A DNA stretch of 64,000 bases from an uncultured Erysipelotrichaceae bacterium (GCA_902795215.1 CADBKG010000004.1:17259-81258); one strand, 5' to 3'. Counted from the first letter of the stretch, positions 36,594 through 61,934 are shown. Numbers and translations are program-made. Notes: generated by a model from the letters alone, not told the origin.

Positions 36594-36613
36594 AATAAAG
36601 GAAGTGATTTTAT

Positions 36614-43311: not shown

Positions 43312-43315
43312 TATT

Positions 43316-44437: not shown

Positions 44438-45611
44438 ATTAAGGACAGATTTAACTATTAGACAGATATGTGAAGGATTTCAATATAGTGAATCTGAAGA
44501 AAAAGGATTATTTGGTTGGGCAGGTAAATTAACTATTCAACCAGAATATCAAAGAAATTATATTTACGCTAATGGAAAAGATGATGTTGCTGTTATTGAT
44601 TCTTTATTAAAGGGTTATCCTATAGGATTAATTTATTTTGTTGAAACAGAAAAAGATAAATATGAAATTCTTGATGGACAACAAAGAATAACTAGTATAG
44701 GTAGATATGTAACTAATAAATTTGCATGGATTGATGAAAACGATATTCCATATAAATTTGAGTCACTTCCAAAAGATAAACAAGATAAAATATATAACAC
44801 CGAATTAACCATTTATATTTGCAGTGGTGAAGAGTCTGAAATAAAAGAATGGTTTAAAACAATTAATATTGCTGGTAAGCCATTAAATAACCAAGAATTG
44901 TTGAATTCTATTTATAGTGGACCATTTATTACTAAAGCAAAAGAGGTATTTAGTAATTCACAAAATTCTAATTTACATAAGTGGTTGAGTTATATGAAGG
45001 TTGAAGTAAAAAGACAAGGATTATTAGAAGTCGCTTTATCATGGGTTTCAAAAGATTGGGAAAAAGATGGTAATCTTGAAAAATATATGGCAGATCATAG
45101 ACATGATGATAATATTAATGAATTAACTTCATATTTTAATGATGTTATTAACTGGGTTTCAACTATATTTATTGATGTAAAAGATGAAATGCAATATATT
45201 AATTGGGGAAAAATGTACGAAAAGTATCATAAAAATCCTTATAATTCTAATGATGTTTCAAGAAAATTAAATGAATTATATAGTGATTACTTTGTAAATG
45301 ATAAAAAAGGTTGTTATGAGTATATATTAAATGGTTGTAAACAAGAAGATACAAAATTACTTAATATTAGACTTTTTGATGAGCCAACAAAAAAGACAGT
45401 ATATGAAAGTCAAACACAAAATGCTAAAATTAAGAACATTTCTAATTGCCCAATGTGTGTAATCGAAAACTTATCTAATAAAACAAAAATATGGGATTAT
45501 AAAGATATGGATGCTGATCATGTAACTGCATGGAGCAAAGGGGGATCTACTGACATTAGTAATTGTCAAATGCTATGTAGAACACATAATCATATTAAAG
45601 GAAATAGATAA
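44418..45611 (+). CDS. DUF262 (ParB-like nuclease) plus HNH endonuclease fusion, GmrSD-type type IV restriction-like
   Basis: [11 protein letters not shown] and [10 protein letters not shown] (DGQQR) motifs; C-terminal [35 protein letters not shown]. Confidence 0.75.
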
Positions 45612-45617
45612 TATTAA

Positions 45618-45667
45618 AGCGCTAGTACAGGCTTAAATATGTTTAAGTTTTTGTATTGCGCTTTTTT
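45618..45667 (+). repeat. Second copy of the terminator-like hairpin element (see 36546-36593)
   Basis: AGCGCTAGTACAGGCTT...AAGTTTTTGTATTGCGC plus TTTTTT. Confidence 0.6.
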
Positions 45668-45684
45668 AGTAGTAGGAGGTAGTG

Positions 45685-46875
45685 ATGTTAAGAATATATA
45701 TAGGACCTAATGGTTATGGAAAGACATATGCAATTAATAGTAAAATAGAAGAATTAAAAAAAGAGGATAAAAATAGAAAAGATATAATAATACTAAATTC
45801 TGAAATAGTTTTTGCAGATGAGATGAAGGATAGTGTTAATAATTCATTTGTTATGGAATATTTAATAGAAGAATTATTAGAAAATGATGATATTAATACT
45901 GCAAAAAATAATTATGAAAAATTAATAGACAAAAATGTAGAAGAGAATAAAAAAATGTATAATGATATTATGAATGAAGTGTTATCTCTTAATAATCAAC
46001 AGAGAAAAAAAGATGTTATAGATACTACATCTAGTAAAGAACATAAAAAACTTATCAAAATAAATTCAGATGATTTAAAGAATTCTATGGGTAGCGGTCA
46101 AAAATTGCAATTTTTATTAAAATTAATTGAAAAAAGCAATAAAAAATATATATTTTTAGACGAACCAGAGAATCATACACATCCTTCATTATTACACATT
46201 ACAGCTGGATTGATTAATAAGTTGAGTATAGATAAAGATGTGTGTATTGCAACTCATTCTCCAGAATTACTAAGTTTGTTAAATATTGATTTTAATGAAT
46301 TATATATTTTTAATGATCCAAATTATGGGAACCCTAAGAAAATAAATTTTAATGATGCGGTATCTATTTCAAAATCTATACATTTAGATAATTTAAATAA
46401 TAAATCAAAAACTTATTATAACGCATTAAGCTTTAAAAAAAATATAATAGAGTTACATAAAAAAGAATTTTTTGAGGCTATTTTTTCAAAAAAAGTATAT
46501 ATGATTGAAGGTATTAATGACTTATTATTTTTAAAATCATTATTAGTAAAAAATCTTGAGCAATATAATCAATATAGTATTTTTCAATGTTATGGAAAAC
46601 CTCATTATTTGCCTTTTATTAATGTTTTTGAACAATTAGGGATTGAGGTTGTGCCTTTATTTGATATTGACGATAAAAATGATAGCAATAATGTTTTGAT
46701 TAATGAAGAAATAAAAAAATGTAAGAAATATTTAGAATTTGACGATAATTTAGAAAATGAATTGAATTATTTGGGGAAAAAGACTGATACTACAGCTTTT
46801 ATTGAGTTTTTGGATAACTTTAATAATTATAAAAAATATAGTTCTATATTTGATGGAAGTGATGAAAATGTTTAA
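45685..46875 (+). CDS. Compact OLD-family protein (ABC-type ATPase plus Toprim)
   Basis: Walker A GPNGYGKT, signature-like MGSGQK, Walker B YIFLDEPENHTHP, ATHS; then Toprim-like VYMIEGINDLLF and PLFDIDDKND. Confidence 0.6.
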   Translation: MLRIYIGPNGYGKTYAINSKIEELKKEDKNRKDIIILNSEIVFADEMKDSVNNSFVMEYLIEELLENDDINTAKNNYEKLIDKNVEENKKMYNDIMNEVLSLNNQQRKKDVIDTTSSKEHKKLIKINSDDLKNSMGSGQKLQFLLKLIEKSNKKYIFLDEPENHTHPSLLHITAGLINKLSIDKDVCIATHSPELLSLLNIDFNELYIFNDPNYGNPKKINFNDAVSISKSIHLDNLNNKSKTYYNALSFKKNIIELHKKEFFEAIFSKKVYMIEGINDLLFLKSLLVKNLEQYNQYSIFQCYGKPHYLPFINVFEQLGIEVVPLFDIDDKNDSNNVLINEEIKKCKKYLEFDDNLENELNYLGKKTDTTAFIEFLDNFNNYKKYSSIFDGSDENV

Positions 46876-49180
46876 TATATTAAATTTAGATCCATTAGAA
46901 TTTGAAAAGTTTTGTATGGATTTTATGGAGAAAAAATTAAATACAAAATTTAAAAGATTTGGTCCGGGAAAAGATGATGGAATTGATTTAATAAGTTTAG
47001 ATGGAAAAATTATATGTCAATGCAAACGTTATAAGGACTCATTAAATTTAAAAACAGTTTGTCAAAATGAATATAATAAAATAAAAAACACAGAATTTGA
47101 AAAATACTATTTACTTACAACTGCAGAACTGGGTAAAAAAATAGTAGAAAATATATATGAAATTTTTCACGAATATATGGATGATTACTCTTATATAATA
47201 GGGAAAACAGATATTGATGACTTTTTATCTGACACTAATAATATAGATGTTTTGAAAAAAAATCATAAATTATGGCTATCTTCATCTATTGTTTTAGATT
47301 TGTATTTAAATAGATATTCTGATGCAATAAGTAAGGTAATTATAAATGATTTTGAAAATGAAACAAAATTTTTTGTTGAAACCAAAGCTTATTATAATGC
47401 AGTGGATATTATTAATTCAAATGGAATAATCTTATTTGTCGGAGATCCTGGTATTGGAAAAACAATAACATCAAAAATGTTAATAAGATATCTTTTAGCA
47501 AATAATAAAGATTATAAATTGACAACAGTATCTAATAACGACTTATCAAAATTAATAGAGTCTGTACATCAAAATGATGATCCTGAAATAATATTTTTAG
47601 ATGATTTTTTAGGTCAAACTTCATTATCTTTAGATGATAAGTTGATTAATGATTTAAAAAATTTATTGAAGTTAACTACAATTTTTAATAATAAGAAGGT
47701 TATATTAAATAGTAGAATTACTATTTTAAACAAGGCAAAACATGAAAAAGAAGAATTTGAAAAATTATTAGATGAAATAGGTATAAAAGAGTGCCTAATT
47801 GATGTAAATGATTTAAGTCAATTAGATAGGGCGAGAATATTGTATAACTTAATGTATCATAATGGTGTTACAAAAGAATCATTTAATACTATAAAAAAAG
47901 ATAACAATTATAATTTAATAATTAATCATAAATCTTTTAATACACGAATCATTGAAATGTGTTGCAAAAGATCTAATAGGGTAGCTTCTGAGAATTTTTT
48001 TAATTATATTATTGAATCATTAAATAATCCAAAAGATATTTGGAAAAGTGAGTTTGAGAGAATAGAAACGTGTGATGTAGTCCTAATGTATCAATTGTAT
48101 ACATTAGGAAATAATTATATACCAGTTGATTGCCTTCATAAATCTGTTACAAATTATCTTTGTAATTCTAATTCTGAAGTTGAAAAATATAGCTTTGAAG
48201 ATTCAATAAATAGATTGAGTAAGTCATTAATAGGAATTGCAATATTAGGCAAGAAAAAATATATAAGTGTTCTAAATCCATCTATTAATGACTATATTCA
48301 GAATTACCTTTTAGATAATTTGGCTGAATTAAAGAAAATTTATGATAATGCATTATATATAGAGCAAATAGATAAAATAGTGAATATTTTACCATCTATT
48401 TTAGAAGATAAAATTGAGGGCTTTGAAAAATTAATTGCATATAATCAATATAATTCGTTCATGAGTAATCAATATTTAGACAAAAAGAAGAAAATTAATT
48501 TTATATTAAAAAATAAATATTTTGATAAAAATTTAATTAATTATATTAGTGATTTATTTAATATAGATATTGGTGGAAATTATTTAATTAAAATGGCAAT
48601 GGACGAGAAAATACGAGAATATTATAATTTAGAAGAAAAACTATCTAATATGGATTTAGTTTCAAAGAGGTTTTGTGATGCAGACTATGATTATATAGAG
48701 GAATTATTTGATTATTATTCAACTCAAAAAATTCCATTAACTATTATTGAAGAAAGTTTAGAAGAAATATATGTAAATGCTTTAGAACAAAAATTGACAA
48801 TTATTGGTGAAGAATATGCAAAAGAATTGATAAATGAAGCATCTGCAGATGAAAAATTTGTTGGTGAAATAGAAGAAATTGAGGTAAATAGTGATTTTGT
48901 ATATGAATTAAGAACACAAGTAGAGGATGAAATTAAAAGTCAAAGTTTTGAATTGATTAACTTAATTAAAGAAAAAGGTTATGAGATGGAAAATATTAAA
49001 ATAGATGTAGACATAATAATTGATAATATTTGTATTGAGATGCTTCTTGATGACGATTTGACGTCATTTTTAAAGGACTTAGCTGTAGAGAATATGGAAT
49101 ATGATTATTCAGATATGGGAGCACGTGATACAATTACAATTGATGATATATTTAATCAAGAATATGACATTATTAATTAA
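46862..49180 (+). CDS. Mrr-like nuclease fused to a STAND/NACHT-like P-loop NTPase with a helical C-terminal region
   Basis: N-terminal GPGKDDGIDL...IICQCKRYK (Mrr_cat-like); Walker A GDPGIGKTITS; Walker B IIFLDDFLGQ. The start at 46862 overlaps the upstream stop. Confidence 0.6.
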   Translation: MKMFNILNLDPLEFEKFCMDFMEKKLNTKFKRFGPGKDDGIDLISLDGKIICQCKRYKDSLNLKTVCQNEYNKIKNTEFEKYYLLTTAELGKKIVENIYEIFHEYMDDYSYIIGKTDIDDFLSDTNNIDVLKKNHKLWLSSSIVLDLYLNRYSDAISKVIINDFENETKFFVETKAYYNAVDIINSNGIILFVGDPGIGKTITSKMLIRYLLANNKDYKLTTVSNNDLSKLIESVHQNDDPEIIFLDDFLGQTSLSLDDKLINDLKNLLKLTTIFNNKKVILNSRITILNKAKHEKEEFEKLLDEIGIKECLIDVNDLSQLDRARILYNLMYHNGVTKESFNTIKKDNNYNLIINHKSFNTRIIEMCCKRSNRVASENFFNYIIESLNNPKDIWKSEFERIETCDVVLMYQLYTLGNNYIPVDCLHKSVTNYLCNSNSEVEKYSFEDSINRLSKSLIGIAILGKKKYISVLNPSINDYIQNYLLDNLAELKKIYDNALYIEQIDKIVNILPSILEDKIEGFEKLIAYNQYNSFMSNQYLDKKKKINFILKNKYFDKNLINYISDLFNIDIGGNYLIKMAMDEKIREYYNLEEKLSNMDLVSKRFCDADYDYIEELFDYYSTQKIPLTIIEESLEEIYVNALEQKLTIIGEEYAKELINEASADEKFVGEIEEIEVNSDFVYELRTQVEDEIKSQSFELINLIKEKGYEMENIKIDVDIIIDNICIEMLLDDDLTSFLKDLAVENMEYDYSDMGARDTITIDDIFNQEYDIIN

Positions 49181-49336
49181 TGAAAAAATAATATATGGGA
49201 GTACAGTTTGTATTCCTTTTTTCTTTTTTGTACAATATCTTTTTATTTTTATTTGATGTAAGATGGAAACACCTAGGAGAAGTAGTATGTAAAAGTGCAC
49301 TTTTATAAAGATATATTTTATGTATGATTCTATAGA

Positions 49337-49780
49337 ATGGATACTATGGAAGAATTTATAAATCCAATTATACCAATATCGGTATTAAGTGATAGTAGAA
49401 TATCATCTTTAGAAAAGTTATTATTACTACACATAATTTCTTTGTGTAAGAATAAAGGATATTGTTGGGCTACAAATAGTTATTTTATGAATATTCATGG
49501 ATATAGTAAACAAACAATATCTAAAAGTAATTCTAAACGTACAATTACACTTGACCATGTATTAAAGAATAAGATACAGGGTATTAAAGAAAACTTTAAT
49601 TCTAGTATTCAATCAAACTTTAAACAATATAAAAAAAGTAATATAAATAAAATATATTACAAGGATGAGTTGGGTAATGAATATTGGAATGGACAACTAA
49701 TTAAAAGTGAAACACCAACTGAAGAAGAACTTGAAGAACTGAATAAATTATTAGAAGAATTTAAAAAAGAGGAGGAATAA
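49337..49780 (+). CDS. HTH-domain protein (phage/plasmid replication-type HTH), possibly truncated
   Basis: LEKLLLLHIISLCKNKGYCWATNSYFMNIHGYSKQTISKS resembles HTH_36-type N-termini; the remainder is atypically short. Confidence 0.4.
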   Translation: MDTMEEFINPIIPISVLSDSRISSLEKLLLLHIISLCKNKGYCWATNSYFMNIHGYSKQTISKSNSKRTITLDHVLKNKIQGIKENFNSSIQSNFKQYKKSNINKIYYKDELGNEYWNGQLIKSETPTEEELEELNKLLEEFKKEEE

Positions 49781-49826
49781 AAATATTATGGGAAAAATTA
49801 TCATAGAATTTTTTAAGAGGTGAAAA

Positions 49827-49922
49827 ATGTTTAATATTAAAGAAACCTTTAAAAAAGATGATAATTCTACTATTAATGATTTGATAATTGGATATATAAA
49901 ATGTGTTTTAATAAAATCGTAG
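49827..49922 (+). CDS. Small ORF upstream of recombinase A (shortened homologue of 58605-58784)
   Basis: RBS AAGAGGTG; 31 aa; FKKDDNSTINDLIIGYIK aligns with FKDASISLNEIITEVLK of the element B ORF. Confidence 0.35.
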   Translation: MFNIKETFKKDDNSTINDLIIGYIKCVLIKS

Positions 49923-49997
49923 ATTTGTTATATGTCTATTTTAATGGTAGACTCAAGTCAGGCTTTAAATGTTATACAAAAGAAAGGAGTAGAAGCT

Positions 49998-51584
49998 GTG
50001 TATAACACTATACTAGAGCACCCTAGTTACTATAGAGTAGGATTATATATAAGATTATCTGAAGCAGATTCTGATAAAAGTTATGAATCAGAAAGTGAAA
50101 GTATTATTAATCAAAGAAATTTATTAATGAGTTTTGTAAAACAAAATGAATTTACCTTTGTCGATGAATATATTGATGATGGATTTACTGGTACTAATTT
50201 TGATAGACCTGGATTTAAAAGGTTACTTGAAGATATTGAAAATGGTAGAATAAACTGTGTTATAACAAAAGATTTATCTAGACTTGGTAGAAATTATGTT
50301 ACTTGTGGTTATTATGTAGATGAGTATTTTCTTTTAAAAAAAGTTAGATATATTGCTGTACTTGATCAAGTAGATACTTTTTTAAATAATGTTGGTAATG
50401 AAATGATACCTTTTAAATCAGTATTTAATGATATGACAAGTAGAGATAATTCTAAAAAGATACGTTCTATTTTAAGAAATAAGAAAGAAGATGGAAAATT
50501 TATTGGAAGTGAGCCTAGCTTTGGCTATATGAGAGATCCAGAAGATAAAGGGCATTTATTACCTAATCCTGATACTGCCTTTATTGTTAAAAAGATATTT
50601 GAAATGGCAAATAATGGTGTAAGTGTAAGTGATATTGCAAGTTATCTTAATGATTGTAAATATCCAACACCAAGTTTATACAAAAAGAAAGAAGGCTCAA
50701 AACAAAAATTCAATCCTATATGGACTGTTTCATCAGTAAAGAAAATACTAAAAAATCAAATGTATACAGGTGATATGGTACAAAATGTACAAACTAAATT
50801 ATCATATAAATCTCAAAAAAAAGTTGCTCTTAATAAAGAAGCATGGATAATTGTAGAGAATACTCATGAACCATTAGTTAGTAAAGAAGTTTTTAATAAA
50901 GTTCAAAGTAATGTTAAAAGAAAGCAGAAAACACAAACTGATAGAGAAAAAAGATTATTTGAAAATCTTATTTATTGTCAGGAATGTGGCAATACTTTAA
51001 CGGTTACTTACCGAAAAAATCATGATTATTGGACTGTTAATTGTAATAAATATTCAAGAGATCCTAGAAGACATTTATGTTATCCACATTTTATGCCTTA
51101 TGATAAATTAGAAGAAGCATTACTAGGTACTATTAAAAACACTTGTAAGAAATATCTAGATGAGATTGATGTTAAATCATTAGCACGACTTATAAATGAT
51201 AAAAATACTTCTAAAGAAAGTACAACGGAAGAAATTAATTTTTTGAATAAAAAAATTAAAGAATACAATGCTAAAATTGATATGCTATATGATGATAAAT
51301 TTAAAGGTAATATTTCAGAGGATACTTATAAAAGATTATCAAGAGAAACAGAAATATTACTAAATCAATCTAAATCTAGAATAGAAGAATTACAAGCAGT
51401 AGATATAAAGAAAAAAGAGTCTACAAAAGAAATGAAAAACTATGAAGATAAAATTAAGAAATTAATAAATCTAGATAATCCAAGTAGAGAATTATTACAA
51501 TCTATTATTGATAAAATTGTAATTGATAAAGATAGAAACATCGAAATATTTTATAAATTCAGTTTATTGAATGATATTGATTAA
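49998..51584 (+). CDS. Large serine recombinase (TnpX/SpoIVCA family) of element A
   Basis: Resolvase domain VGLYIRLSEADSD...YIDDGFTGTNFDRPGF...DLSRLGRNY, recombinase domain, zinc ribbon CQECGN...CNKY, coiled coil. The GTG at 49998 follows AAAGGAG; the ORF stays open back to 49932. Confidence 0.9.
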   Translation: MYNTILEHPSYYRVGLYIRLSEADSDKSYESESESIINQRNLLMSFVKQNEFTFVDEYIDDGFTGTNFDRPGFKRLLEDIENGRINCVITKDLSRLGRNYVTCGYYVDEYFLLKKVRYIAVLDQVDTFLNNVGNEMIPFKSVFNDMTSRDNSKKIRSILRNKKEDGKFIGSEPSFGYMRDPEDKGHLLPNPDTAFIVKKIFEMANNGVSVSDIASYLNDCKYPTPSLYKKKEGSKQKFNPIWTVSSVKKILKNQMYTGDMVQNVQTKLSYKSQKKVALNKEAWIIVENTHEPLVSKEVFNKVQSNVKRKQKTQTDREKRLFENLIYCQECGNTLTVTYRKNHDYWTVNCNKYSRDPRRHLCYPHFMPYDKLEEALLGTIKNTCKKYLDEIDVKSLARLINDKNTSKESTTEEINFLNKKIKEYNAKIDMLYDDKFKGNISEDTYKRLSRETEILLNQSKSRIEELQAVDIKKKESTKEMKNYEDKIKKLINLDNPSRELLQSIIDKIVIDKDRNIEIFYKFSLLNDID

Positions 51585-51586
51585 TT

Positions 51587-51948
51587 GAAGTTAGTTTATT
51601 TCTAACTTCGTACATATAGAGGCGAAAATACAAAGAAATTATGTGTAAAACTATTGAATATAAATGTTATAACAAACTTGTGACCAAATTGGGTAAAAGT
51701 TACTAATATGAATGATTAATTAACTTCGGCCCAAGTTGGCCAAAGTTAGTGCAATATCTTCTAACTTCCCACAAACTTGGATGGAAGTGGGATAATTAAA
51801 CTTACGACCAAGTTAGTCGAAGATTATATAGTAACTTCTGACCAAATTGAACAGAAGTTGCAATGTTAAATTTGAAGGAATAATAATTATTGTTTTGATT
51901 CTATTAATATTTAAAAAAAATAACTTTGTCGCAAGTGGCGACGAAGTT
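51587..51948. repeat. Array of seven imperfect palindromic units built on AACTT/AAGTT
   Basis: Units at 51587-51609, 51675-51701, 51722-51747, 51763-51791, 51798-51822, 51833-51859 and 51922-51948. Outer arms AACTT...AAGTT are conserved; inner arms vary but remain largely complementary. Confidence 0.7.
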
Positions 51949-52094
51949 AAAAAAAATTTAAATAATATATTTTAATTTTTAGTACATTATAATAAAGGCG
52001 TAATAATTCTTAAAATTAAAAAGCTATTACGGTTAATCGTAATAACTTTACAAAAGTGTAAAAATGATATATAATGTAATCAGAGGTGATTTAT

Positions 52095-53300
52095 ATGCTT
52101 TTAAGAGAAGATTATTTATCTAAAATTAGAGGGTTTTATGATTCTGATTTGATTAAAATATTAGTTGGTATAAGAAGATGTGGAAAATCTGTTATTCTAA
52201 ATCAAATAATAGAAGAATTAAAAGAAAAAACAAAAATTGATGAAGAACATATAATATTTATTAATTTTGAATTTATTGAATTTGAAGAACTACTAGATTA
52301 TAAAAAACTAAATAAATATATAAAGGATAAAATTAAAGATAATAAAATATATTATTTGTTTTTAGATGAAATTCAGAATGTTGATAATTTTGAAAAAGTT
52401 GTTAATTCACTACGTGCGCAGGTAAAAAATATAAGTATATTTTTAACTGGATCTAATAGTAAAATGTTATCAGATGAATTATCATCAGTTTTATCCGGTA
52501 GATATGTTTTATTTAATATTAATCCTTTATCTTATAAAGAATATGTATCTTTAACAAATAAAGATGGTAAAGACTTAAATACTTTTTGGGACTATGCTAA
52601 ATGGGGAGGACTCCCTAATAGATGTGAATTTACAAATGAGATAGATATAAAGAATTATCTTCATAGTGTATATGATTCTATTATTTTAAGAGATGTTGTA
52701 AAAAGATTAAATTTAAAAGATACAGTTTTATTTGATATGATATTGCAATATTTAATTGAAACTGCTGGACGTGAATTTTCTGCTGATAATATTATAAAAT
52801 ATTTAGATAAAGAAAATAAAAAAATATCTAATGAAACACTTTATAATTATATAGATGCTTTATGTAAGGCATTAATACTTAAAAAGGTATATAGATATGA
52901 TATTGCTGGTAAAGGTGTATTAAAAACATTAAATAAGTATTATGCTACTGATTTAGGAATTGCTCAGATAAAAAATAATAATTCAGAATTTAAAAGTTAC
53001 GTTGTATTGGAAAATATTGTTTATAATGAGTTAATAAACAGAAACTACGAAGTATATATTGGTAAAACTAAAAATGGTGAAGTTGACTTTTTAGCAAAGA
53101 AAGATGGAAATATTAAATATATCCAAGTAACTTATGAAATGGAAGGCAACGATAATACCATAGAAAGAGAATTTGGAGCATATAAGTCTATTGAAGATAA
53201 TTATCCAAAATATGTTATTTCTCTTGATAAAATAGATTTATCTCGTGATGGAATTATTCATCTAAATTTAATTGATTTTCTATTAAGTGAAGAGTTTTAA
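52095..53300 (+). CDS. AAA-type ATPase with a DUF4143-like C-terminal domain
   Basis: Walker A GIRRCGKS, Walker B YLFLDEIQNV, typical ~400-aa AAA_14/DUF4143 layout. Confidence 0.65.
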   Translation: MLLREDYLSKIRGFYDSDLIKILVGIRRCGKSVILNQIIEELKEKTKIDEEHIIFINFEFIEFEELLDYKKLNKYIKDKIKDNKIYYLFLDEIQNVDNFEKVVNSLRAQVKNISIFLTGSNSKMLSDELSSVLSGRYVLFNINPLSYKEYVSLTNKDGKDLNTFWDYAKWGGLPNRCEFTNEIDIKNYLHSVYDSIILRDVVKRLNLKDTVLFDMILQYLIETAGREFSADNIIKYLDKENKKISNETLYNYIDALCKALILKKVYRYDIAGKGVLKTLNKYYATDLGIAQIKNNNSEFKSYVVLENIVYNELINRNYEVYIGKTKNGEVDFLAKKDGNIKYIQVTYEMEGNDNTIEREFGAYKSIEDNYPKYVISLDKIDLSRDGIIHLNLIDFLLSEEF

Positions 53301-53317
53301 ATTGGGAAAATTATATG

Positions 53318-53357
53318 CTGCAGAGAATTCTGCAGAGCTCTGCAGTAATCACTGCAG
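53318..53357. repeat. Four phased CTGCAG(A) motifs in the intergenic region
   Basis: CTGCAG at 53318, 53330, 53340 and 53352 (spacing 12, 10, 12 nt); includes the perfect 16-nt palindrome CTGCAGAGCTCTGCAG. Confidence 0.7.
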
Positions 53358-53379
53358 ACTTAAACAGTAGGTGTGGTTT

Positions 53380-54405
53380 ATGGATAAAAAAGTAAGTAGA
53401 AACAATCATTATTTATCGCAAATGTATTTAGATGCATGGAAAAATAATGATAATAAAGTTTTAGTATATGAATTATTAGTTCCAAATGAAAAATGTCCCA
53501 TGTGGAAATCTAAATCAATAAAAAGCGTTGGAAGTTATGATAGTATGTTTGTTAGATTAAAAAACGGAATTGAAGTAGATGATATTGAAGAGTGGTTTAG
53601 AGATAGATATGAAACTCCAGCAAAAAAATCATTAGAACATGCTATAAATGATGGAAAAATAACTGTTGATGAATGGCATTGTTTAATTGATTTTGTTGCT
53701 TGTCATATTGTTCGTTCTCCTGCTTTTTTAATTAAAACTTTGGATTATGGTAAAAAATGTGAACCAATTTTTCAAGAAGTATTGAGTGAAATATCAAATA
53801 TGAAAGAAGAAGATTTTATTAAAACAAAAGAACGTTCTAATTATTCTAATAATAAAGATGAGTTATTTCCGTTTAAAATGACGAAAATCGGAGAAGAAGG
53901 CAATAATGTAATTTTTAAGGCAGAAACAATTATAGGAAAACAATTTTATTTATGGAACATGAAGAATCTATTAGAAAACACTTCTAAAATATTGCATAAG
54001 CATAAATGGGGAATTATTACAGTAGATGATAAAGTGGTATTACCTACAAGTGATGATCCTGTAATTTGTTTAAACTATAATAATCAAAATGAGTATGATT
54101 TTGACGGAGGCTGGGGTAAGAAAAACTGTAATATATTATTTCCAATATCACCAAAGAAAATATTATATACTCAGGTAGGATTAAAAGTAAAACCAAGAAT
54201 GAACATAGACTACGAAACAAGTTTATTATTTAAGAAAATGATAGTCGAGCATTCTCATAGAAAAGTTATTTCAACCTATGCTGATAAAGATGCTGTTATA
54301 ATTAAACCAAGATATGTAAATGAAAGTGAATATCAAAGAGAAAAGAAAATGTGGGAAGATTTTCAAAAAGACTATTTAGAAAAAGAAATAGATTATATAA
54401 GATAA
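53380..54405 (+). CDS. DUF4238-like protein
   Basis: N-terminal NNHYLSQMYLDAW resembles the DUF4238 signature (NHY.P..YL..F); the family call is tentative. Confidence 0.45.
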   Translation: MDKKVSRNNHYLSQMYLDAWKNNDNKVLVYELLVPNEKCPMWKSKSIKSVGSYDSMFVRLKNGIEVDDIEEWFRDRYETPAKKSLEHAINDGKITVDEWHCLIDFVACHIVRSPAFLIKTLDYGKKCEPIFQEVLSEISNMKEEDFIKTKERSNYSNNKDELFPFKMTKIGEEGNNVIFKAETIIGKQFYLWNMKNLLENTSKILHKHKWGIITVDDKVVLPTSDDPVICLNYNNQNEYDFDGGWGKKNCNILFPISPKKILYTQVGLKVKPRMNIDYETSLLFKKMIVEHSHRKVISTYADKDAVIIKPRYVNESEYQREKKMWEDFQKDYLEKEIDYIR

Positions 54406-54500
54406 AATTGTTAATTACTAAAAGTCGAAACCGTGACAATTTTTCACACTTTCAAGACTAAAAATAAAATAGTTACATTTTGACCTATGCGAGGAGGCGA

Positions 54501-54833
54501 AGGCGCAGAAGTAATATATGCTTTAAGAAACAACGACACACTTGCAAGTAAGATTCTTAATAATCTTGTAAACGAAGGCCAAATAGGAAGAAAGTATTAT
54601 CAAAAAAGATTACCAAGCAATTCTAGTAAAGATTATTATTATATGTTAAGGGAAACACCAAACACAGAAAGTTTAATTATTGAATATGGTTTTATAGATA
54701 ATGCAAATGATGCAAAAAAACTTACAAACAACTGGCAAAACTATGCTGAAGCTGTAATTAAAGCAGTTATGGATTATAAAGGATTAAAATATGTTCCAAT
54801 TATAACTGCAGATAGTTATATTGTTAAATCAGG
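54501..54833 (+). pseudogene. Amidase_3 C-terminal half plus the start of LysM-1, fragment 2 of 3
   Basis: EGAEVIYALRNND...LIIEYGFIDNANDAKKL...YIVKSG continues fragment 1 in frame. The annotated ORF 54487-54867 begins and ends in element sequence. Confidence 0.85.
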
Positions 54834-54895
54834 AGATACGATTTTTATGGGGAATAATGAGTATTAAATTAAATTTTATATATAAAATATTGCTT

Positions 54896-54920
54896 AAGTT
54901 GAGAAAAACTCAACTTTTTT
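54896..54920 (+). terminator. Terminator just inside the left end of element B
   Basis: AAGTTGAG-aaaaa-CTCAACTT hairpin plus a T-run, followed by the extended -10 TGGTATAAT (54921-54929). Confidence 0.65.
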
Positions 54921-54968
54921 TGGTATAATTTAATTATCAAGAACTTTTTTGAAAGGAGTACACTTTTT

Positions 54969-55373
54969 ATGAAAGTAAAATTAACTGAAGTAATTGATGC
55001 ATTAGATTTTACAAATGATGAAATTGAATATTATTATAATCCAGATAATGGAGAAATTTTTATGTCAAATATTGGAGATTATGAAGACATAAATGAAGAT
55101 GAATTAGACGAATTATTTGAAAAGTCTATTATGTTACCTACTAGATATGATATTAACGAATATGAAATGATGGAAGATTTTGCAGAAACTATTGAAGATG
55201 CTAGACTTCAAAATCAACTATATATTTCTTTAAATGGTAGTGGTGCATTTAGAAGATTTAAAGATACTTGCATTAATTTTAATATTATTGATGATTGGTA
55301 TAAATTTAGAGATGAAAAATATAAAGAACTTGCTATAAATTGGTGTAAGGATAATAATATTGAATTTGAATAG
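54969..55373 (+). CDS. UPF0158-like small acidic protein
   Basis: 134 aa; the pattern MKVKLTEVIDALDF...YYYNPDNGEIF...GSGAFRRFKD is typical of UPF0158. Confidence 0.5.
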   Translation: MKVKLTEVIDALDFTNDEIEYYYNPDNGEIFMSNIGDYEDINEDELDELFEKSIMLPTRYDINEYEMMEDFAETIEDARLQNQLYISLNGSGAFRRFKDTCINFNIIDDWYKFRDEKYKELAINWCKDNNIEFE

Positions 55374-55383
55374 GAGATGAATC

Positions 55384-56940
55384 ATGAAGAAGTTTTTAAG
55401 AAATTATGATTTTGAAGATTATTTTGAATCACATATTCTATCCCGTGGGAAAAATTACTATAAAGAAAATAGAATATTAGATATTTGGTGTCAAGATGAT
55501 TCAATAATTGCTTATATTGATGGTTCTGAAATATATAGAATAGAATTAAGAGCAGATAATAAAGAACTAAAAAAATTTTATTGTTCATGCCCATACTCAG
55601 AAGATGGTGAATACATGTGTAAACACATTGCTGCTGTCCTTTATTATTTAGAAGAAAATGATATTCCAGAATTAGAAACTTCAAATAAAAAAGAAATAAA
55701 ACAAGATAAGCATAAATCTGAACTTTCTAAAATATATGATGAAATGAATTATGAGTTAAGAAAAATAAGTGATAGAAATGGTTTTGTTAATTATTATAAT
55801 GGAAGATACTTTGTAGACTTAATTTCTAATGTATCTGATTACATAGATGATTTTATAGATAATGAAGAATATAATAATGCTTTTGAACTAATTAAATTTA
55901 CATATAAATTTATAAAGGATACTTTTATGGATGGATCTAATGGTGAATTTCAAGATTCATTATATTTAATTAACGAAAGTGCAAGTAACCTTTTATATAA
56001 TGATGAATATTTTTATATTTTCTTAGATTATACTGAAGATATAACATCAAATAATACTCTAGATGATTTTTCTGATTCACCATTACATGCATTTATCATT
56101 TATGTTCATGATAAAGAATCTGCTAAAAAAGTAGTTAAAATACTAGATGAAATTGAATTAAGTACTTATGGAATATTCGTTAGCCAAACTTTAGATAAAA
56201 TATCATTAACTTATGATTTTATTGATAGAGATGAAGCTATAAAAATGTGTTATAAAAGTATTGAACATTATGGAGTAAAAGAATTATTAATTAAGTATTT
56301 AAAAAATGATAACAAAATCGATGAAGTTATCCTTTTATTAAAAGATGATATTAAAAATCATGTAAGAAAAGATATGTCTTATGACAAATTATTAGATATT
56401 TATGATGAGTATAATAAACTAGATGAAAAGAAAAAATTATTACCTGAGGTTATTATAGAAACAAATAGTTTTGCAAGATACAAAGAACTAAAAGATATGT
56501 ATAGTGATTCTGAATGGGAGGCTATAAAAGAAAAAATAATATCTAAAATAAAACCTAACAATAGAGATATTTTAGAAGATATTTATATGGAAGAAAATGA
56601 AATTGATAAATTATTCCAATTATTAAAGAAAAATCCTAGTATGTATAGATTAGCAAAATATCAAGATGTACTAAAAGATAAATATAGTAAGGAATTATTA
56701 AATTTTTATAAACCACAGATACTTGAAGAATCTAAAAGAGTATCAGATAGAAAATGGTATCAAGAATTATGTCATTATATTAGAAAAATGAAAGAACTCT
56801 ATAATTCAGATGATTTTATCTTTGATATGCTTAAAGAAATGTATCCTAATTATAGAAGTAAAAGAGCATTTAAAGAAGAAATAATGAAAGTTTTAAGTTC
56901 TAAAAATAAACAAAGATTTTATGAATTGATAAATAACTAG
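55384..56940 (+). CDS. SWIM zinc-finger protein
   Basis: CSCPYSEDGEYMCKHIAAVLYYL is a CxC...CxH SWIM motif; long helical C-terminal region. Confidence 0.7.
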   Translation: MKKFLRNYDFEDYFESHILSRGKNYYKENRILDIWCQDDSIIAYIDGSEIYRIELRADNKELKKFYCSCPYSEDGEYMCKHIAAVLYYLEENDIPELETSNKKEIKQDKHKSELSKIYDEMNYELRKISDRNGFVNYYNGRYFVDLISNVSDYIDDFIDNEEYNNAFELIKFTYKFIKDTFMDGSNGEFQDSLYLINESASNLLYNDEYFYIFLDYTEDITSNNTLDDFSDSPLHAFIIYVHDKESAKKVVKILDEIELSTYGIFVSQTLDKISLTYDFIDRDEAIKMCYKSIEHYGVKELLIKYLKNDNKIDEVILLLKDDIKNHVRKDMSYDKLLDIYDEYNKLDEKKKLLPEVIIETNSFARYKELKDMYSDSEWEAIKEKIISKIKPNNRDILEDIYMEENEIDKLFQLLKKNPSMYRLAKYQDVLKDKYSKELLNFYKPQILEESKRVSDRKWYQELCHYIRKMKELYNSDDFIFDMLKEMYPNYRSKRAFKEEIMKVLSSKNKQRFYELINN

Positions 56941-56955
56941 AAAGATGGTGATAAG

Positions 56956-57901
56956 ATGAAAAACAACATGATTATATATGTATCAAAAGATGGTAATGTA
57001 AAAGTTGATGTTAATATACAAAATGAGGATATTTACATGAGTCAAGATTTAATGGCTAATCTTTATGATACAACTAAAAATAACATTTCAATGCACTTAA
57101 AAAACATATTTGATGAAGGTGAATTGGAAAAAAATTCAGTTGTTAAGAAATTCTTAACAACTGCTAGTGATGGCAAGAAATATAATGTTTTACATTATAA
57201 TTTAGATGCAATTATTGCTGTTGGATATAGAATTAATTCCAAAAAAGCAACTGAATTTAGAATATGGGCGACCAAAGTTTTAAAAGAATATATGGTTAAA
57301 GGATTTGCTTTAAATGATGAAAGATTAAAGAATAATGGTGAAAGTCCATATTTTGAAGAATTACTTGCAAGAATTCGTGATATTAGATCATCTGAAAAAA
57401 TATTTTGGAGAAAAGTATTAGATATTTATGCAACTTCAATTGATTATGATGACTGTGCAGAATAAAATGCACTATGCTACACACGGACATACTGCTGCTG
57501 AAATTATATTTACTAGAGTAGATTCTGAAAAAGATTATTTAGGTCTTACTAATTTTAAAGGTAATTATCCAACAAAGAGTGAAACTGAAATTGCTAAGAA
57601 TTATTTAACAGAAGAAGAACTTAATATATTAAATAGAATGGTATCAGCGTATTTAGATGTAGCAGAAATTAATGCTTTAGATAGACATCCAATGACTATG
57701 CAAGATTGGGTTAATGAATTAGATTCATTCTTAAAAATGACGAGAAAAGATATTTTAAATGGTTCAGGAACCATTTCACATAAAGAGGCATTAGAAAAAG
57801 CACATAAAGAATATGATAAATACATGCAAAAACATTTAACAACTGCTGAGCAAGATTATTTAGAAATGTTAAATAAAGAGATTGAAGAAATTGATAAATA
57901 A
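56956..57901 (+). pseudogene. RhuM-family protein, disrupted (two overlapping frames)
   Basis: 56956-57465 carries the RhuM N-terminus (HLKNIFDEGELEKNSVVKKF...YNLDAIIAVGYRINSKKATEFRIWATKVLKEY). The continuation (TVQNKMHYATHGHTAAE...) lies in another frame from about 57450. Confidence 0.65.
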
Positions 57902-57975
57902 TTTAGTATGTTTTTTGTTAATAAATTCACTTAAAAATAATTACTATGAAAAAAAGATTTGAAAGGAGTAAAAAA

Positions 57976-58224
57976 ATGAAAAAATGGAAAACAGTAAAAA
58001 AAATTACTGTAGTTGTTTTAATACTTTTTATAATAAGATTGATTATTGATGCTATTTTATGCATGAATATGACTTATCCTCATCCTATGTTAGGTATAGA
58101 TGCAAATAAGTGGACAGATCAGTTCGGTGTAGATTTAGCATTTATTCTAGTTATTTGGGGTATACCTTTAATAATTGATATTATTTTTTTAGTAATATCA
58201 TGTGTTAAAACAAAGGAAAAGTAA
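57976..58224 (+). CDS. Small membrane protein
   Basis: RBS AAAGGAG then ATG at 57976; two hydrophobic segments. Confidence 0.45.
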   Translation: MKKWKTVKKITVVVLILFIIRLIIDAILCMNMTYPHPMLGIDANKWTDQFGVDLAFILVIWGIPLIIDIIFLVISCVKTKEK

Positions 58225-58319
58225 AAAGACTATTTATAAATTTAAAATCATCCTTTATATAAACCTACAAAGTAGGTTGAATTTCGTAAGTACGAAATAA
58301 GAATGGTGTATACACAAGT

Positions 58320-58339
58320 CCTTATTTTATAAGGAAAAA
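58320..58339 (+). repeat. Third copy of the CCTTATTTTATAAGGAAAAA core
   Basis: 20/20 identical to 38158-38177 and 16/16 to 29297-29312; the flanks are also loosely similar to the 38.15 kb copy. Confidence 0.6.
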
Positions 58340-58521
58340 CGCGTGTTGTTACACGATCTTCTTATCCTGCTGTTTCATATTTTAATAAGATATGAATCAT
58401 TTTAGGAAGATAGATAAAACTTGCCATAGTAAATGACTTGACTCTTATATTTAACGAGAGGTATCATCCAATTAATGAGGAGATGATGTTTATGAATTTG
58501 GAGGAGGATTATGATATTAAG

Positions 58522-58562
58522 TAATATTACCTAGTATGAAGAAATCATACCAGGTAATATTA
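58522..58562. repeat. 18-bp inverted repeat upstream of the element B recombination module
   Basis: TAATATTACCTAGTATGA-agaaa-TCATACCAGGTAATATTA (one mismatch). Confidence 0.65.
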
Positions 58563-58604
58563 CAAAAATTAAAACCATAGGATTAATTGGAGGTACGGGA
58601 CTCT

Positions 58605-58784
58605 ATGGTTAAATACAAAGTTAATTTAATATTTAAAGATGCATCTATTTCTTTAAATGAAATAATAACTGAAGTATTAAAAATAGAATTAGCGAATATG
58701 TTGGACATGACTTGCAATTATAAAGATTACGAGCTACCATGTAATCATACTCATTATTTCCAAGTAGAAGGGAGTAGTAATTAA
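58605..58784 (+). CDS. Small protein translationally coupled to recombinase B
   Basis: RBS GGAGGT then ATG at 58605; TAATG overlap with the recombinase start; homologous short ORF upstream of recombinase A. Confidence 0.45.
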   Translation: MVKYKVNLIFKDASISLNEIITEVLKIELANMLDMTCNYKDYELPCNHTHYFQVEGSSN

Positions 58785-60349
58785 TGGTAGGGAATAGTAG
58801 TTTTAAAGTAGGAATTTATATAAGATTATCAAGAGATGATGGAAATATAGAATCTGATAGTATTGTGAGTCAAAGAAGTTTATTAAATCAATATGTTAAA
58901 GAAAACAATTATATGTTAGTAGATGAATATGTAGATGATGGATTTTCTGGAACTAATTTTGATAGACCAGCATTCAAAAAGATGATGAAAGATATTGAAG
59001 TAGGTAAAATCAACATGATTATTACTAAAGATATGTCTAGATTAGGTAGAGATTATATAGGTACTGGTGAATTAATAGAAAAGTTTTTTCCAAATAATAA
59101 TATAAGATATATTGCTATTAATGATGGTATAGATACTTTTATAGATAATACAAATAATGATATTGCACCTTTTAAAGCCATAATGAATGATATGTATGCT
59201 AAAGATATATCTAAAAAAATAAAAAGTAGTCTTCATTCAAGAATGAAAGATGGTTTATATGTATCAGGAAGATGTCCTTTTGGCTATATGAAAGATCCAG
59301 AAAATAAAAATCATTTAATCATCAATGAAGAACAAGCAGAAGTTGTGAAATTAATATTTGATTTAGCACTTAAAGGTAATACATATCACTATATTGCACA
59401 ATACCTAACCAATAAGAAAATAAAAACACCTGCCTCTTATTACAACTATGTATGGAACACAAAATGTATTAATACTAATTGTATATCACAAGAATATGGT
59501 GTATGGGTAGATACTACAATTAAAGCAATTTTAACTAATAGAATATATACAGGTGATGCAGTACAAGGTAAGACAAAAAAGATTAATTATAAACTAAAAA
59601 AGACAGTTAAAAATAATCCAAATGATTACATAATAGTAGAAAATACACATGAAGCAATAATTGACAAGAGTATATTTAATTATGTACAAACTTTACTACC
59701 TAAAAATGTTAAAAGACCAGAAAAGAAAAGATTTTATTTATTAGATGGTTTACTATATTGTGGAGATTGCAAACATCGTATAACAATTAGGTATCAAAAT
59801 AAAACAGGAAGAAGTTATACGACTTGTGATTATTATAGAACATATTCAAAATATCATGTCTGTACAACTCACACAAATAATTATGAAGTATTAGAAAGTA
59901 TTATTTTAGATAATATAAAAGATGTATGTAAAAAGTATTTAGATAAAAATAAAATAAAAGAATCTATTAATAATATAGAGTTTGAAGATAATACTTTTAG
60001 GATTAAAAAACAAATTGAAAGCCTAGATTTAACTAATAATAGATTAACTGAAAGTCTAGATAAAACATATATGGATAGATTAAAAGGAATTATTGATGAA
60101 GAACAATATATTAGAGTAAGTGAAAGTATAAAAACAGAAATAAATAATAATAAAAATAATATTGATAATCTTAAAAATGAACAAATTGAAGAAAATAAAG
60201 TAGATAACAAACAAATAGAAAAATATATTAATGAATTTTTATCACTAGATAAGGTGGCTAGGGAATTAATAATTAATTTAGTTGAAAAAATCTATATCTA
60301 TCAAGATAAGACGATAGATATTATATTTACATTTAAAAATGTTACATAA
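58784..60349 (+). CDS. Large serine recombinase (TnpX/SpoIVCA family) of element B
   Basis: VGIYIRLSRDDGN...YVDDGFSGTNFDRPAF...DMSRLGRDY, recombinase domain, zinc ribbon CGDCKH...CDYY, coiled-coil C-terminus. Confidence 0.9.
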   Translation: MVGNSSFKVGIYIRLSRDDGNIESDSIVSQRSLLNQYVKENNYMLVDEYVDDGFSGTNFDRPAFKKMMKDIEVGKINMIITKDMSRLGRDYIGTGELIEKFFPNNNIRYIAINDGIDTFIDNTNNDIAPFKAIMNDMYAKDISKKIKSSLHSRMKDGLYVSGRCPFGYMKDPENKNHLIINEEQAEVVKLIFDLALKGNTYHYIAQYLTNKKIKTPASYYNYVWNTKCINTNCISQEYGVWVDTTIKAILTNRIYTGDAVQGKTKKINYKLKKTVKNNPNDYIIVENTHEAIIDKSIFNYVQTLLPKNVKRPEKKRFYLLDGLLYCGDCKHRITIRYQNKTGRSYTTCDYYRTYSKYHVCTTHTNNYEVLESIILDNIKDVCKKYLDKNKIKESINNIEFEDNTFRIKKQIESLDLTNNRLTESLDKTYMDRLKGIIDEEQYIRVSESIKTEINNNKNNIDNLKNEQIEENKVDNKQIEKYINEFLSLDKVARELIINLVEKIYIYQDKTIDIIFTFKNVT

Positions 60350-60362
60350 AAATTGTATCAGG

Positions 60363-60792
60363 TGATACTCTTTGGACTATTGCAAGAAATAACGGCCTTA
60401 CGGTTGATGAATTAAAGAAATTAAATAACTTAACATCTAATACTCTACAAATAGGGCAAGTGCTAAAATTAAAAGAAAACTCTTCAAATAATAGTGGAGT
60501 AAATAATTATTACACAGTAAAAAGCGGGGATAGTTTATGGAAAATAGCAAATACATTTGGTACAACAGTAAATAAACTAAAAGAAATAAACAACTTAAAA
60601 ACAGATGTATTACAAATAGGGCAGAAATTACTTTTACCTACTTCTAATGAAGAAAAAGTATATACTGTAAAATCTGGAGATACTTTATATGGAATAGCAC
60701 TAAAGAATAATACGACTGTTGATAAGTTAAAAGAAATCAACAATTTATCAACAAATATATTAAGTATTGGACAAAAACTTCTTTTACCTTAA
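60363..60792 (+). pseudogene. Remainder of LysM-1 plus LysM-2 and LysM-3, fragment 3 of 3 of the amidase gene
   Basis: GDTLWTIARNNGLTVDELKKLNNLTSNTLQIGQVLKL, then YTVKSGDSLWKIA... and YTVKSGDTLYGIA... . In frame with fragment 2; the track ORF 60460-60792 is its tail. Confidence 0.85.
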
Positions 60793-60879
60793 GACTCTTA
60801 TGAGTCTTTTTAAATTTTACATTTAATTTATATTAAAATAATGATATAATAAATATATATTAGAGAAAGGAGTTTGTTT

Positions 60880-61338
60880 ATGTATACTGATATTTATGAT
60901 TACCCAACAAGCTATTCAAAAGGGTTCGCAGGTGTTGATTCAACATGGATGATTATTTCACTTGTTCTTGCAATTGTAGGAGGTATTTTTGCATATTTTG
61001 CATTTGTTGCTAAAAAGAATCCATTTAAAGGTCCTTTTATTGAGTGGCTACATGACTTTTTAAACTTCAAAATGTATATTGTAAGTGGAATATTAAAAAT
61101 AGCTTATGTATGTACTGCTATATTTATTACACTTGGTTCATTTGGAGTTATTGGTTCTAGTGTTGCATCATTCTTTGGTATATTAATATTTGGTAACTTA
61201 CTAGCAAGAATTAGTTATGAAATGTTATTGATGATGATTACTCTTGTAAATAATACTAGTGAAATCAATAGAAAATTAGGATCTAAAGAACCTAAAAAAG
61301 AAGAACCTAAAGAAAAGAAAGCTAAAGAAGAAAAATAA
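60880..61338 (+). CDS. Membrane protein (DUF4282-like)
   Basis: Three hydrophobic segments, Lys/Glu-rich tail; ATG at 60880 after AAAGGAG. Confidence 0.5.
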   Translation: MYTDIYDYPTSYSKGFAGVDSTWMIISLVLAIVGGIFAYFAFVAKKNPFKGPFIEWLHDFLNFKMYIVSGILKIAYVCTAIFITLGSFGVIGSSVASFFGILIFGNLLARISYEMLLMMITLVNNTSEINRKLGSKEPKKEEPKEKKAKEEK

Positions 61339-61860: not shown

Positions 61861-61934
61861 AGGGGTGTGGTATAATGGTAGCATAGGAGTCTCCAAAACT
61901 TTTGATGGGAGTTCGATTCTCTCCACCCCTGCCA
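61861..61934 (+). tRNA. trnW: tRNA-Trp (anticodon CCA) with encoded CCA end
   Basis: AGGGGTG...CACCCCT acceptor stem, anticodon loop CUCCAAA, T-arm GGGAGTTCGATTCTCTC, 3' GCCA; 74 nt; closely resembles Bacillus tRNA-Trp. Confidence 0.9.

Follow-up and report, generated by a model that had tools for sequence, protein, structure and literature searches.

The DNA analysed here is a 64,000-nucleotide stretch from an uncultured Erysipelotrichaceae bacterium (the window; coordinates are window positions, and comparison loci are denoted by L and their locus number). It contains a gene for a wall amidase with an Amidase_3 domain and three LysM repeats, which was found in three fragments separated by two inserted elements, A and B, all fragments lying on the plus strand. 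The 5' fragment (40471-40754) is severed by element A (40755-54492). The middle fragment (54487-54833) was recognised by Pfam and from the rebuilt open reading frame (ORF), and the ORF at 54487-54867 encodes the C-terminal part of the Amidase_3 domain. The 3' fragment (60363-60795) was identified on the same two grounds, its ORF (60358-60792) encoding the three LysM repeats. Element B, which separates the last two fragments, is a real 5.5-kb mobile island that was placed precisely in LysM-motif DNA by a large serine recombinase; in kind it is an ordinary mobile element, and it is the target, LysM-coding DNA, that is unusual. It very probably comprises 54834-60360 together with one copy of a GG dinucleotide (5,529 bp) and is an integrative island for whose movement its own large serine recombinase, a relative of TnpX, is responsible.

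Both junctions of element B lie where the first-pass annotation of the window had placed them, the left one reading AAATCAGGAGATACGATTTTTATG (54826-54849) and the right one CATAAAAATTGTATCAGGTGATACTCTTTGG (60345-60375). The 12-mer ATCAGGWGATAC occurs in each of them (54828-54839 and 60357-60368) and, with one mismatch, also at 60672, inside the third LysM repeat. The middle host fragment ends in the left half of the host attachment site (attB), ...TATATTGTTAAATCA-GG, which encodes Tyr-Ile-Val-Lys-Ser-Gly of LysM repeat 1, and the 3' fragment opens with the right half, TGATACTCTTTGGACTATTGC (Asp-Thr-Leu-Trp-Thr-Ile-Ala), followed by the rest of LysM 1, LysM 2, LysM 3 and the stop codon. A terminator-like site of the host gene itself was found at 60791-60808 by a consensus scan. 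Once 54834-60362 is taken out, the interrupted LysM repeat of the gene (348 amino acids; Amidase_3 and three LysM repeats) is whole again, and the uninterrupted ORF is obtained when 54833 is joined to 60363 and, across element A, 40754 to 54501. An intact orthologue, also of 348 amino acids, is present in a metagenome contig (L081; 91% protein and 87% DNA identity) in which the sites of both A and B are empty. The reconstituted ORF and this orthologue together establish element B as a real insertion of 5,529 bp. The empty B site of the orthologue reads ...AAATCTGGTGATACACTTTGG, with T after the GG as in the right junction (attR) of the window, which fits a host-derived right side of attR.

Relatives were collected in one scan that covered one genome per species, which yielded 491; the 80 best were taken, with recombinases that are 76-93% identical. 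Both junctions were available for 54 copies, namely the window copy and 53 others from gut metagenome-assembled genomes, with lengths of 2.3-7.9 kb. The 53 other complete copies retain both arms, the GG and the position of the recombinase. The left end of element B (54834-54860, plus strand; P' half-site) reads A-GATACGATTTTTATG-GGGAATAATGAG, its inverted-repeat arm covering 54835-54849. Translated in the frame of the host gene, this end appends Ile-Phe-Met-Gly-Asn-Asn-Glu-Tyr and a stop codon (54865-54867) to the amidase fragment. Conservation here is 1.0-2.0 bits per position in the 54 copies, with minima at two free positions beside GATAC and at the outer end. A putative terminator, detected by consensus scan as a hairpin with a T run followed by TGGTATAAT, lies inside the left end (54896-54923, plus strand), after the truncated host ORF and ahead of the cargo. 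The right end (60333-60360, plus strand; P half-site) reads TTAAAAATGTTA-CATAAAAATTGTATC-A and is conserved mostly at 1.4-2.0 bits per position, with four weaker positions that include the free ones. Its arm (60345-60359) overlaps the last sense codon and the stop codon of the recombinase gene. The family forms of the two ends are TTAAAAATGTTACATAAAAA-NN-GTATC-N-GG on the right and GG-N-GATAC-[A/G]N-TTTTTATGGGGAATAATGAG on the left.

The recombinase (58784-60349, plus strand; 521 amino acids) contains Resolvase (PF00239, residues 11-157), Recombinase (PF07508, 182-306) and Zn_ribbon_recom (PF13408, 319-379) domains, all above gathering scores. This order of catalytic, recombinase and zinc-ribbon domains, together with inverted half-sites around 2 bp in the joined element ends (attP) and a less symmetric attB, is that of the large serine recombinases. 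Its best match in the PDB is the catalytic domain of TnpX (E = 2e-28, about 50% identity over 110 amino acids), with which a conserved RLSRDD segment aligns. Membership of the CcrA/B/C group was rejected (NCBIfam equivalog scores of 118.7 bits for CcrB and 94.4 for CcrC against cut-offs of 900), as was membership of XisF, for which the score was far below the cut-off. The stop codon ends 11 nucleotides before the central GG of attR (60361-60362) and 7 nucleotides before the 12-bp repeat, so the earlier placing of the recombinase 9 nucleotides from the right end was roughly right; the distance from stop codon to GG is as in the window in 45 of the 54 copies.

A conserved ORF of 59 amino acids (58605-58784, plus strand; 65 amino acids if started from TTG at 58587) lies beside the recombinase gene in nearly all 80 loci, and its stop codon overlaps the recombinase start (TAATG). 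Its relatives comprise 496 protein clusters, typically of 59 amino acids and without name or Pfam family. Its position and conservation make it a candidate for an accessory or directionality factor. The conserved segment in front of it (58438-58609, plus strand) appears to serve as the leader of the recombination module. It includes a promoter-like site (TTGACT-18-TATCAT, 58438-58467) and two hairpins with weak covariation support. The first, at 58521-58563, is long and has a few compensatory changes; the second, which is invariant (58574-58581/58602-58609; ACCATAGG/TCTATGGT), encloses GGAGG and pairs with the ATG start codon. The conserved module of the family thus consists of the two ends, the 59-amino-acid ORF and the recombinase, the rest being variable cargo.

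The host sides of the junctions in the 54 copies spell TAT-ACN-GTN-AAA-NNN-GG on the left (consensus TATAc.GT.aAA...GG) and N-GAT-ACN-YTN-TGG/TAT-...-ATT-GC on the right. In silico removal of the element between the two GGs restores a read-through ORF in 52 of the 54 copies, and Pfam, run on six host proteins and on the window gene, confirmed a restored LysM repeat across the junction in each. The interrupted genes encode Amidase_3 with LysM, Peptidase_M23 with LysM (L004; L056 by eye), GH25 with LysM (L005, L026), PG_binding_1 with LysM (L059; L072 and L032 by eye) and small LysM proteins, and orthologous amidases were found to be interrupted in different LysM repeats. Since the interrupted genes are not all amidases and different repeats are used in orthologous ones, the target of the family is the LysM motif, Y-x-V-x-x-G followed across the junction by D-T-L-(W/Y)-x-I-A, and not this amidase gene. 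The suggestion that B had chosen a site in the same gene as A does not describe its family, which hits LysM-coding DNA of several unrelated genes in different repeats. A full-text literature search found no paper that ties serine recombinases to LysM targets.

When the ends of element B are joined they give CATAAAAATTGTATCAGGAGATACGATTTTTATG, that is, CATAAAAATTGTATC-AGGA-GATACGATTTTTATG. The rebuilt attP is a 15-bp inverted repeat, CATAAAAATTGTATC / GATACAATTTTTATG, which matches at 14 of 15 positions in the window and surrounds 4 bp with a central GG, the dyad axis falling between the two G. The site had been described as a perfect 9-bp inverted repeat around a palindromic 16-bp spacer; the dyad centred on GG holds, and the site is better described by the longer repeat with the 4-bp centre AGGN. 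The consensus attP of the 54 copies is a perfect 15-bp inverted repeat, and the attB consensus has almost no dyad symmetry. A chance origin of the repeat was ruled out, as a match of at least 14 of 15 is expected in about 5.6e-7 of random composites of window sequence and occurred in 1 of 2,000,000 sampled. The inverted arms, whose absence elsewhere would have spoken against the site, are kept in the other copies of the family.

The central GG of the left junction attL (54832-54833, plus strand) and that of attR (60361-60362, plus strand) probably represent the crossover dinucleotide, judging from the dyad centre of attP and from the differences that flank the GG in the two junctions. The base before the GG (-1) is unlike between attL and attR in 25 of the 54 copies, the base after it (+1) in 30, and both in 14; the single A/T difference of the window (54834/60363), already pointed out in the first-pass annotation, bounds the crossover on the right side. 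To the left of the GG, attL varies like host codons, and to its right attR does so. The free positions are mirror-symmetric about the GG, comprising the base beside it on each side and two bases 7-8 nucleotides out in each arm, and the constrained positions of the two arms are likewise mirror-symmetric. Dimeric serine recombinases cut at the centre of their own dyad, as is established for the family. On the basis of the symmetry, of the differences on both sides and of this behaviour, we infer that GG is the crossover dinucleotide rather than an off-centre GA. The related core AGGWG proposed for both elements fails across the family, in which the common part is GG only; the remainder of the 12-bp repeat in the window consists of the GATAC of the element arm, which resembles the host Asp-Thr codons, and of a chance match of the host Ser codon TCA.

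The same element could instead cross over at GA (54835-54836/60364-60365), as is the case for TnpX of Tn4451 (PMC5704250) and TndX of Tn5397 (PMC4430133), both of which use a central GA. The recombinase of B is closest to TnpX, and GA is present in both junctions and conserved in 96-98% of the attL/attR pairs. However, the GA dinucleotides that the first-pass annotation had linked to TnpX lie 3 bp off the dyad axis, and it is about GG that the conserved and the free positions mirror each other. The empty site of the nearest orthologue has T where the GA model predicts the attL base A, a weak argument at 87% nucleotide identity. A crossover at GA is in our judgement very improbable. In L026, attL (7729) and attR (11574) have 13 bp in common (GGCGACACGCTTT), possibly through gene conversion by LysM repeats nearby. 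This identity was considered as a sign of a different crossover and dropped, as it needs only one change at a constrained position besides the free positions.

With the crossover at GG, the events at the locus would run as follows. The attP comprises the 34-bp dyad and about 12 conserved bp on each side (about 58 bp). A recombinase dimer would occupy the two arms of 15 bp and cleave at the GG between them. In attB, the GG comes from the Gly codon, and the inner part of the arm is imitated by the Asp-Thr codons (GATAC). Integration would be orientation-specific, because GG is not palindromic. It splits the host gene in frame, and the truncated host product gains the short conserved tail IFMGNNEY before the stop codon, with the terminator-like hairpin and then the cargo following. 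Exact reversal between the two GGs would rebuild the LysM repeat, with ...AAATCAGG-TGATACTC... predicted as the attB product and ...GTATCAGG-AGATACGA... as the attP product. The two models should be distinguishable by their excision products, as GG would give ...CAGGTGATAC... in attB and ...CAGGAGATAC... in attP, and GA the reverse. At the level of the joints, GG would join 54833 to 60363, giving attB ...GTTAAATCAGG TGATACTCTTTGG..., and 60362 to 54834, giving attP ...AAAATTGTATCAGG AGATACGATTTTTATG..., whereas with GA the A and T would be swapped.

The cargo of element B lies between the left end and the leader, on the plus strand. A UPF0158 protein (54969-55373; Pfam) is encoded in a cassette that is 90-94% identical in L005, L014, L016 and L028, partial in L003 and 40% identical in L071. 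It is followed by a SWIM zinc-finger protein of 518 amino acids (55384-56940; Pfam), 80-90% identical in L003, L005, L014, L016, L028 and L071 and with a partial match in L046. A RhuM-family gene (56956-57901; Pfam), which PADLOC lists as candidate defence gene PDC-S05, comes next. An ORF of 92 amino acids taken from the ORF list (57946-58224), hydrophobic by eye, had no tblastn match in the 80 loci and no Pfam family. Other copies carry methyltransferases and, by eye, restriction-, AIPR- and HNH-like proteins. Cargo differs from copy to copy across the family, with methyltransferases, restriction-like genes and others of defence type among it.

Several results weigh against our reading of element B as a mobile island that crosses over at GG. 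The GA at +2/+3 (54835-54836/60364-60365) is conserved in both sites, so that identity alone leaves room for GA; this conservation is accounted for by GA opening both the host Asp codon and the GATAC of the element. Among close relatives, the base after the GG does not track the left end of the element (5/18 and 0/6, pairs too few to give the comparison power). No excision joint from 54833 to 60363 was found in contigs of the three metagenome runs that hold the window (54300-60900 compared), and the sole run with raw reads gave three reads and almost no coverage of this region. A search of metagenome contigs with the attP-junction pattern gave no strict match and one relaxed match (L103, probably a tandem array), and viral contigs gave none. 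The 59-amino-acid ORF has no detectable homology in Pfam or NCBIfam and no confident fold, AlphaFold2 with 26 sequences giving one helix at a pLDDT of 58. No transfer functions were found in element B by Pfam and NCBIfam on the ORFs of 54834-60360, a scan in which oriT was not searched for. Finally, a break at 57450/57451 divides the RhuM gene into two ORFs (56956-57465 and 57428-57901). In the contigs of three metagenome runs, an additional 32 bases (CCAAAAGATAAATTATCAATAGATTTTTTCAA) are present here, and the break in the window is therefore a frameshifting 32-bp deletion or an assembly error; the gene is unbroken in other loci. An apparent joint from 54839 to 60660 (depth 4, with a 29-nucleotide side) was rejected as a look-alike produced by the LysM repeats and not an excision product.

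The broken RhuM gene and the lack of excision joints in the contigs of the three runs would also be expected of an immobile fossil, with an inactive recombinase and ends conserved by recent descent only. This is improbable, as the full-length recombinase ORF retains each of its three domains, the two arms agree with the family consensus wherever positions are constrained, and the 59-amino-acid ORF and its leader are intact. We infer that the window copy of the island is currently active.

The family to which element B belongs is widespread in gut bacteria, mobile and horizontally exchanged. Gut metagenome-assembled genomes with the label Bacilli, Tenericutes or Erysipelotrichaceae are the source of nearly all of the 80 best relatives, and the window sequence itself is present in ruminant gut metagenomes. 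The recombinases are 76-93% identical and the common cargo mostly 87-96% (one divergent copy is lower), and the host parts show 36-64% identity for the amidase and 61-70% for the neighbouring Hydrolase_2 gene. The G+C content (GC) of the element is about 24% at any flank GC (19-47%); in L026, labelled Eubacterium sp. CAG:180, an element of 24% GC lies between flanks of 47%. Horizontal spread follows from this constant GC in such different hosts and from recombinases that are far more alike than the host genes. Recombinases 92% identical to that of the window were found in three different kinds of host gene. Attachment-site hybrids in which a right end is fused to a left end, as in attP, occur in arrays (L019 at 11525, L048 at 3352 and L103 at 137-170), the second unit in L019 retaining only the last 64 codons of a recombinase. 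These junctions represent tandem accretion and decay of elements.

The in-frame insertion in a cell-wall hydrolase gene and its exact reconstitution in silico are also what would be seen in a programmed gene-intervening element of the type of skin in sigK, gin in gerE or SPbeta in spsM. In such a case, timed excision, for example in the sporulating mother cell, would reactivate the wall hydrolase, and the 59-amino-acid ORF would be the directionality factor. The translational coupling of this small conserved ORF to the recombinase behind a conserved structured leader would suit such a role, there is a precedent in gin, a non-phage element with a serine recombinase and a small factor (PMC5595907), and a Hydrolase_2 (SleB-type) gene is the neighbour of the amidase gene, both in the window and at no fewer than 10 other loci. 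Programmed excision is compatible with mobility. On the other hand, the same element interrupts many LysM genes that are unrelated to one another and is also present on a viral contig, many homologues are intact (including the 91%-identical orthologue that is empty at both sites), and exchange between distant hosts is clear. No sporulation gene was found among the window proteins scanned, and two independent excisions would be needed here because the amidase is split twice. We therefore hold a programmed role to be rather unlikely. In L005 (452-1377, minus strand), two ORFs resemble the spore-coat proteins CotJC and CotJB by eye, which would hint that some hosts sporulate; the bin label of this contig, Muribaculaceae, looks wrong for it.

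A possible route by which the mobile island passes between cells is on phage genomes. The element would then travel on phages with the LysM DNA of a phage lysin as its attB, hitch-hiking and possibly crippling the lysin. Two IMG/VR contigs (L082, L083) hold an 86%-identical copy of 3.2 kb (attL 8342, attR 11577) in a Peptidase_M23 and LysM gene that comes after two holin-like ORFs, and a few kb upstream of it there are, by eye, tail-fibre and holin genes and then a GH25-LysM gene. The GH25-LysM target in L005 (Pfam) is likewise preceded by a holin-like ORF recognised by eye. The lack of recognised transfer genes in an element whose hosts span 19-47% GC also points in this direction. Close relatives nevertheless account for only 2 of the 21 viral matches, and the copies in L082 and L083 may be located in host sequence or in a leftover piece at the edge of a prophage. 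The setting of the window copy and of most other loci is plain chromosomal DNA, and the holin and tail-fibre readings were made by eye. Carriage on phages is accordingly an unlikely account, if somewhat less so than a programmed role.

Among known systems, element B resembles in its working the integration module of a serine-integrase phage, of Tn4451 or of Tn5397. TnpX of Tn4451/Tn4453 is the closest recombinase with a solved domain, and these are also small non-phage elements bounded by a 2-bp crossover; a further link is provided by element A, which carries a TnpV homologue. TnpX has 707 amino acids. The recombinase of B has 521 and, unlike in Tn4451/Tn4453, lies at the right end reading outward. 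TnpX crosses over at a central GA with low target specificity (PMC5704250), whereas the site of B is centred on GG and its LysM-coding target is specific. In contrast to Tn4451/Tn4453, integrative mobilizable elements whose mobilisation module comprises the Mob protein TnpZ and oriT, the ORFs of 54834-60360 contain no relaxase (Mob) family in Pfam or NCBIfam, oriT not having been searched for. The GG centre, the specific target and the lack of a recognised Mob gene rule out element B as a member of Tn4451. Tn5397 shares with B a large serine recombinase that prefers DNA encoding a conserved protein domain, in this case Fic-domain-coding DNA in Clostridioides difficile, with a central GA (PMC4430133). 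It is a 21-kb conjugative transposon, whereas elements of the B family are cargo islands of 2.3-7.9 kb with a central GG and a LysM target.

The skin (SpoIVCA), SPbeta (SprA-SprB) and gin (GirC-GirX) elements are comparable to B in that a serine recombinase element lies in coding sequence and exact excision rebuilds the gene, as shown for gin with its small second factor (PMC5595907). These elements occupy one fixed gene each and are tied to sporulation, in contrast to B, which occupies many LysM genes and crosses distant hosts. The integrases of phages phiC31, Bxb1, TP901-1 and A118 share the domain architecture of the B recombinase, and the catalytic domain of TP901-1 was matched. For the large serine integrases of phages, as for B, the attP has dyad arms that surround a central dinucleotide which is not palindromic, and the attB is less symmetric. 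Unlike their elements, B has no phage genes, and its attB is a repeated domain-coding motif and not a single chromosomal site.

Element A (40755-54492; 13.7 kb) has junctions that share GGAGGCGA (40747-40754 and 54493-54500). Its arms, GTTACATTTTGACC (54472-54485) and GGTCAAAGTGTAAC (40756-40769), are 14 bp long, match at 13 of 14 positions and flank a 16-bp spacer with a central GG (54493-54494/40747-40748). The geometry that had been noted as common to A and B, arms with a 16-bp spacer and a central GG, is thus present in both. Right ends of the A type in six other genomes retain the arm and the GG, as read directly from the junctions; a strict pattern search for the arms of element A in other loci gave nothing useful. 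The recombinases of A and B are diverged relatives, as proposed earlier, with 39% identity on alignment, and both are closest to TnpX among solved structures (about 50% over the catalytic domain). The terminal position of the recombinase does not hold for A in the window, where 2.9 kb of extra cargo lies to the right of it: the TnpV homologue is at the left end (40824-41174) and the recombinase (49932-51584) is in the middle of the element. Pfam and PADLOC identified in the cargo of A an EcoRI-like methylase, GmrSD_N/HNH, an OLD-like ATPase and DUF4238, together with the PADLOC candidates nSTAND3 with Mrr_cat (PDC-S73), T5orf172 (PDC-S57) and AAA_14/DUF4143 (PDC-S01). In L048, the start and upstream region of the AAA_14/DUF4143 gene of A come after a B-type left end, and on this evidence A- and B-type elements appear to exchange cargo. 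Right after the recombinase of A (51590-51960), about six short imperfect palindromes on AACTT...AAGTT were observed (for example TAACTTCGGCCCAAGTTGGCCAAAGTTAG and AACTTCTGACCAAATTGAACAGAAGTT). An AGGCGA at 51619-51624 echoes the core of A, and the run of palindromes may be a seam between fused elements.

A third lineage of serine recombinases, about 32% identical to those of A and B, was found in L041 (3380-3560), L064 (6180-6330) and L079 (7100-7640). Immediately downstream of its end, amidase sequence picks up again at the ...G-H-G-G motif, and the amidase gene therefore seems to have been hit at three conserved motifs (DAGHGG, NAGGG-E/D-G and LysM GDT) by three recombinase lineages.

Elsewhere in the window, defence-type genes outside A and B comprise Mrr_cat (29486), DUF6996/DUF6997/DUF7226 (31210), DUF6339 (35692) and Abi_2 (11974, in a region reaching to 12915), and several large ORFs without a family also lie within 29486-38023. 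Matches above the Rfam gathering thresholds were a SAM riboswitch (27965-28067) and a tRNA gene (61861-61931), the latter 1.1 kb downstream of the amidase gene and used by neither element.

With element B, a natural serine integrase becomes available for which attP and attB are both resolved to the base, the attB consensus being a LysM-coding motif. The 54 natural site pairs and the conserved small partner protein would be useful in studies of DNA reading and direction control and for integrase toolkits. By targeting codons that are held constant by selection on the protein, such an element would have a cheap landing-site strategy in almost any Firmicute, and the wall-hydrolase genes of uncultured gut Bacilli are flagged as hotspots for islands of this kind. 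We propose, tentatively and with somewhat more doubt than confidence, that a recombinase lineage has evolved to read the DNA of the Gly-Asp-Thr turn of LysM, so that any LysM wall hydrolase gene, whether chromosomal or phage-borne, may act as a landing pad. A minimal island consisting of the ends, the new type of 59-amino-acid partner and the recombinase would then shuttle swappable and in good part defence-related cargo among distant gut Firmicutes, and the same amidase would have been hit at three motif codons by three recombinase lineages.

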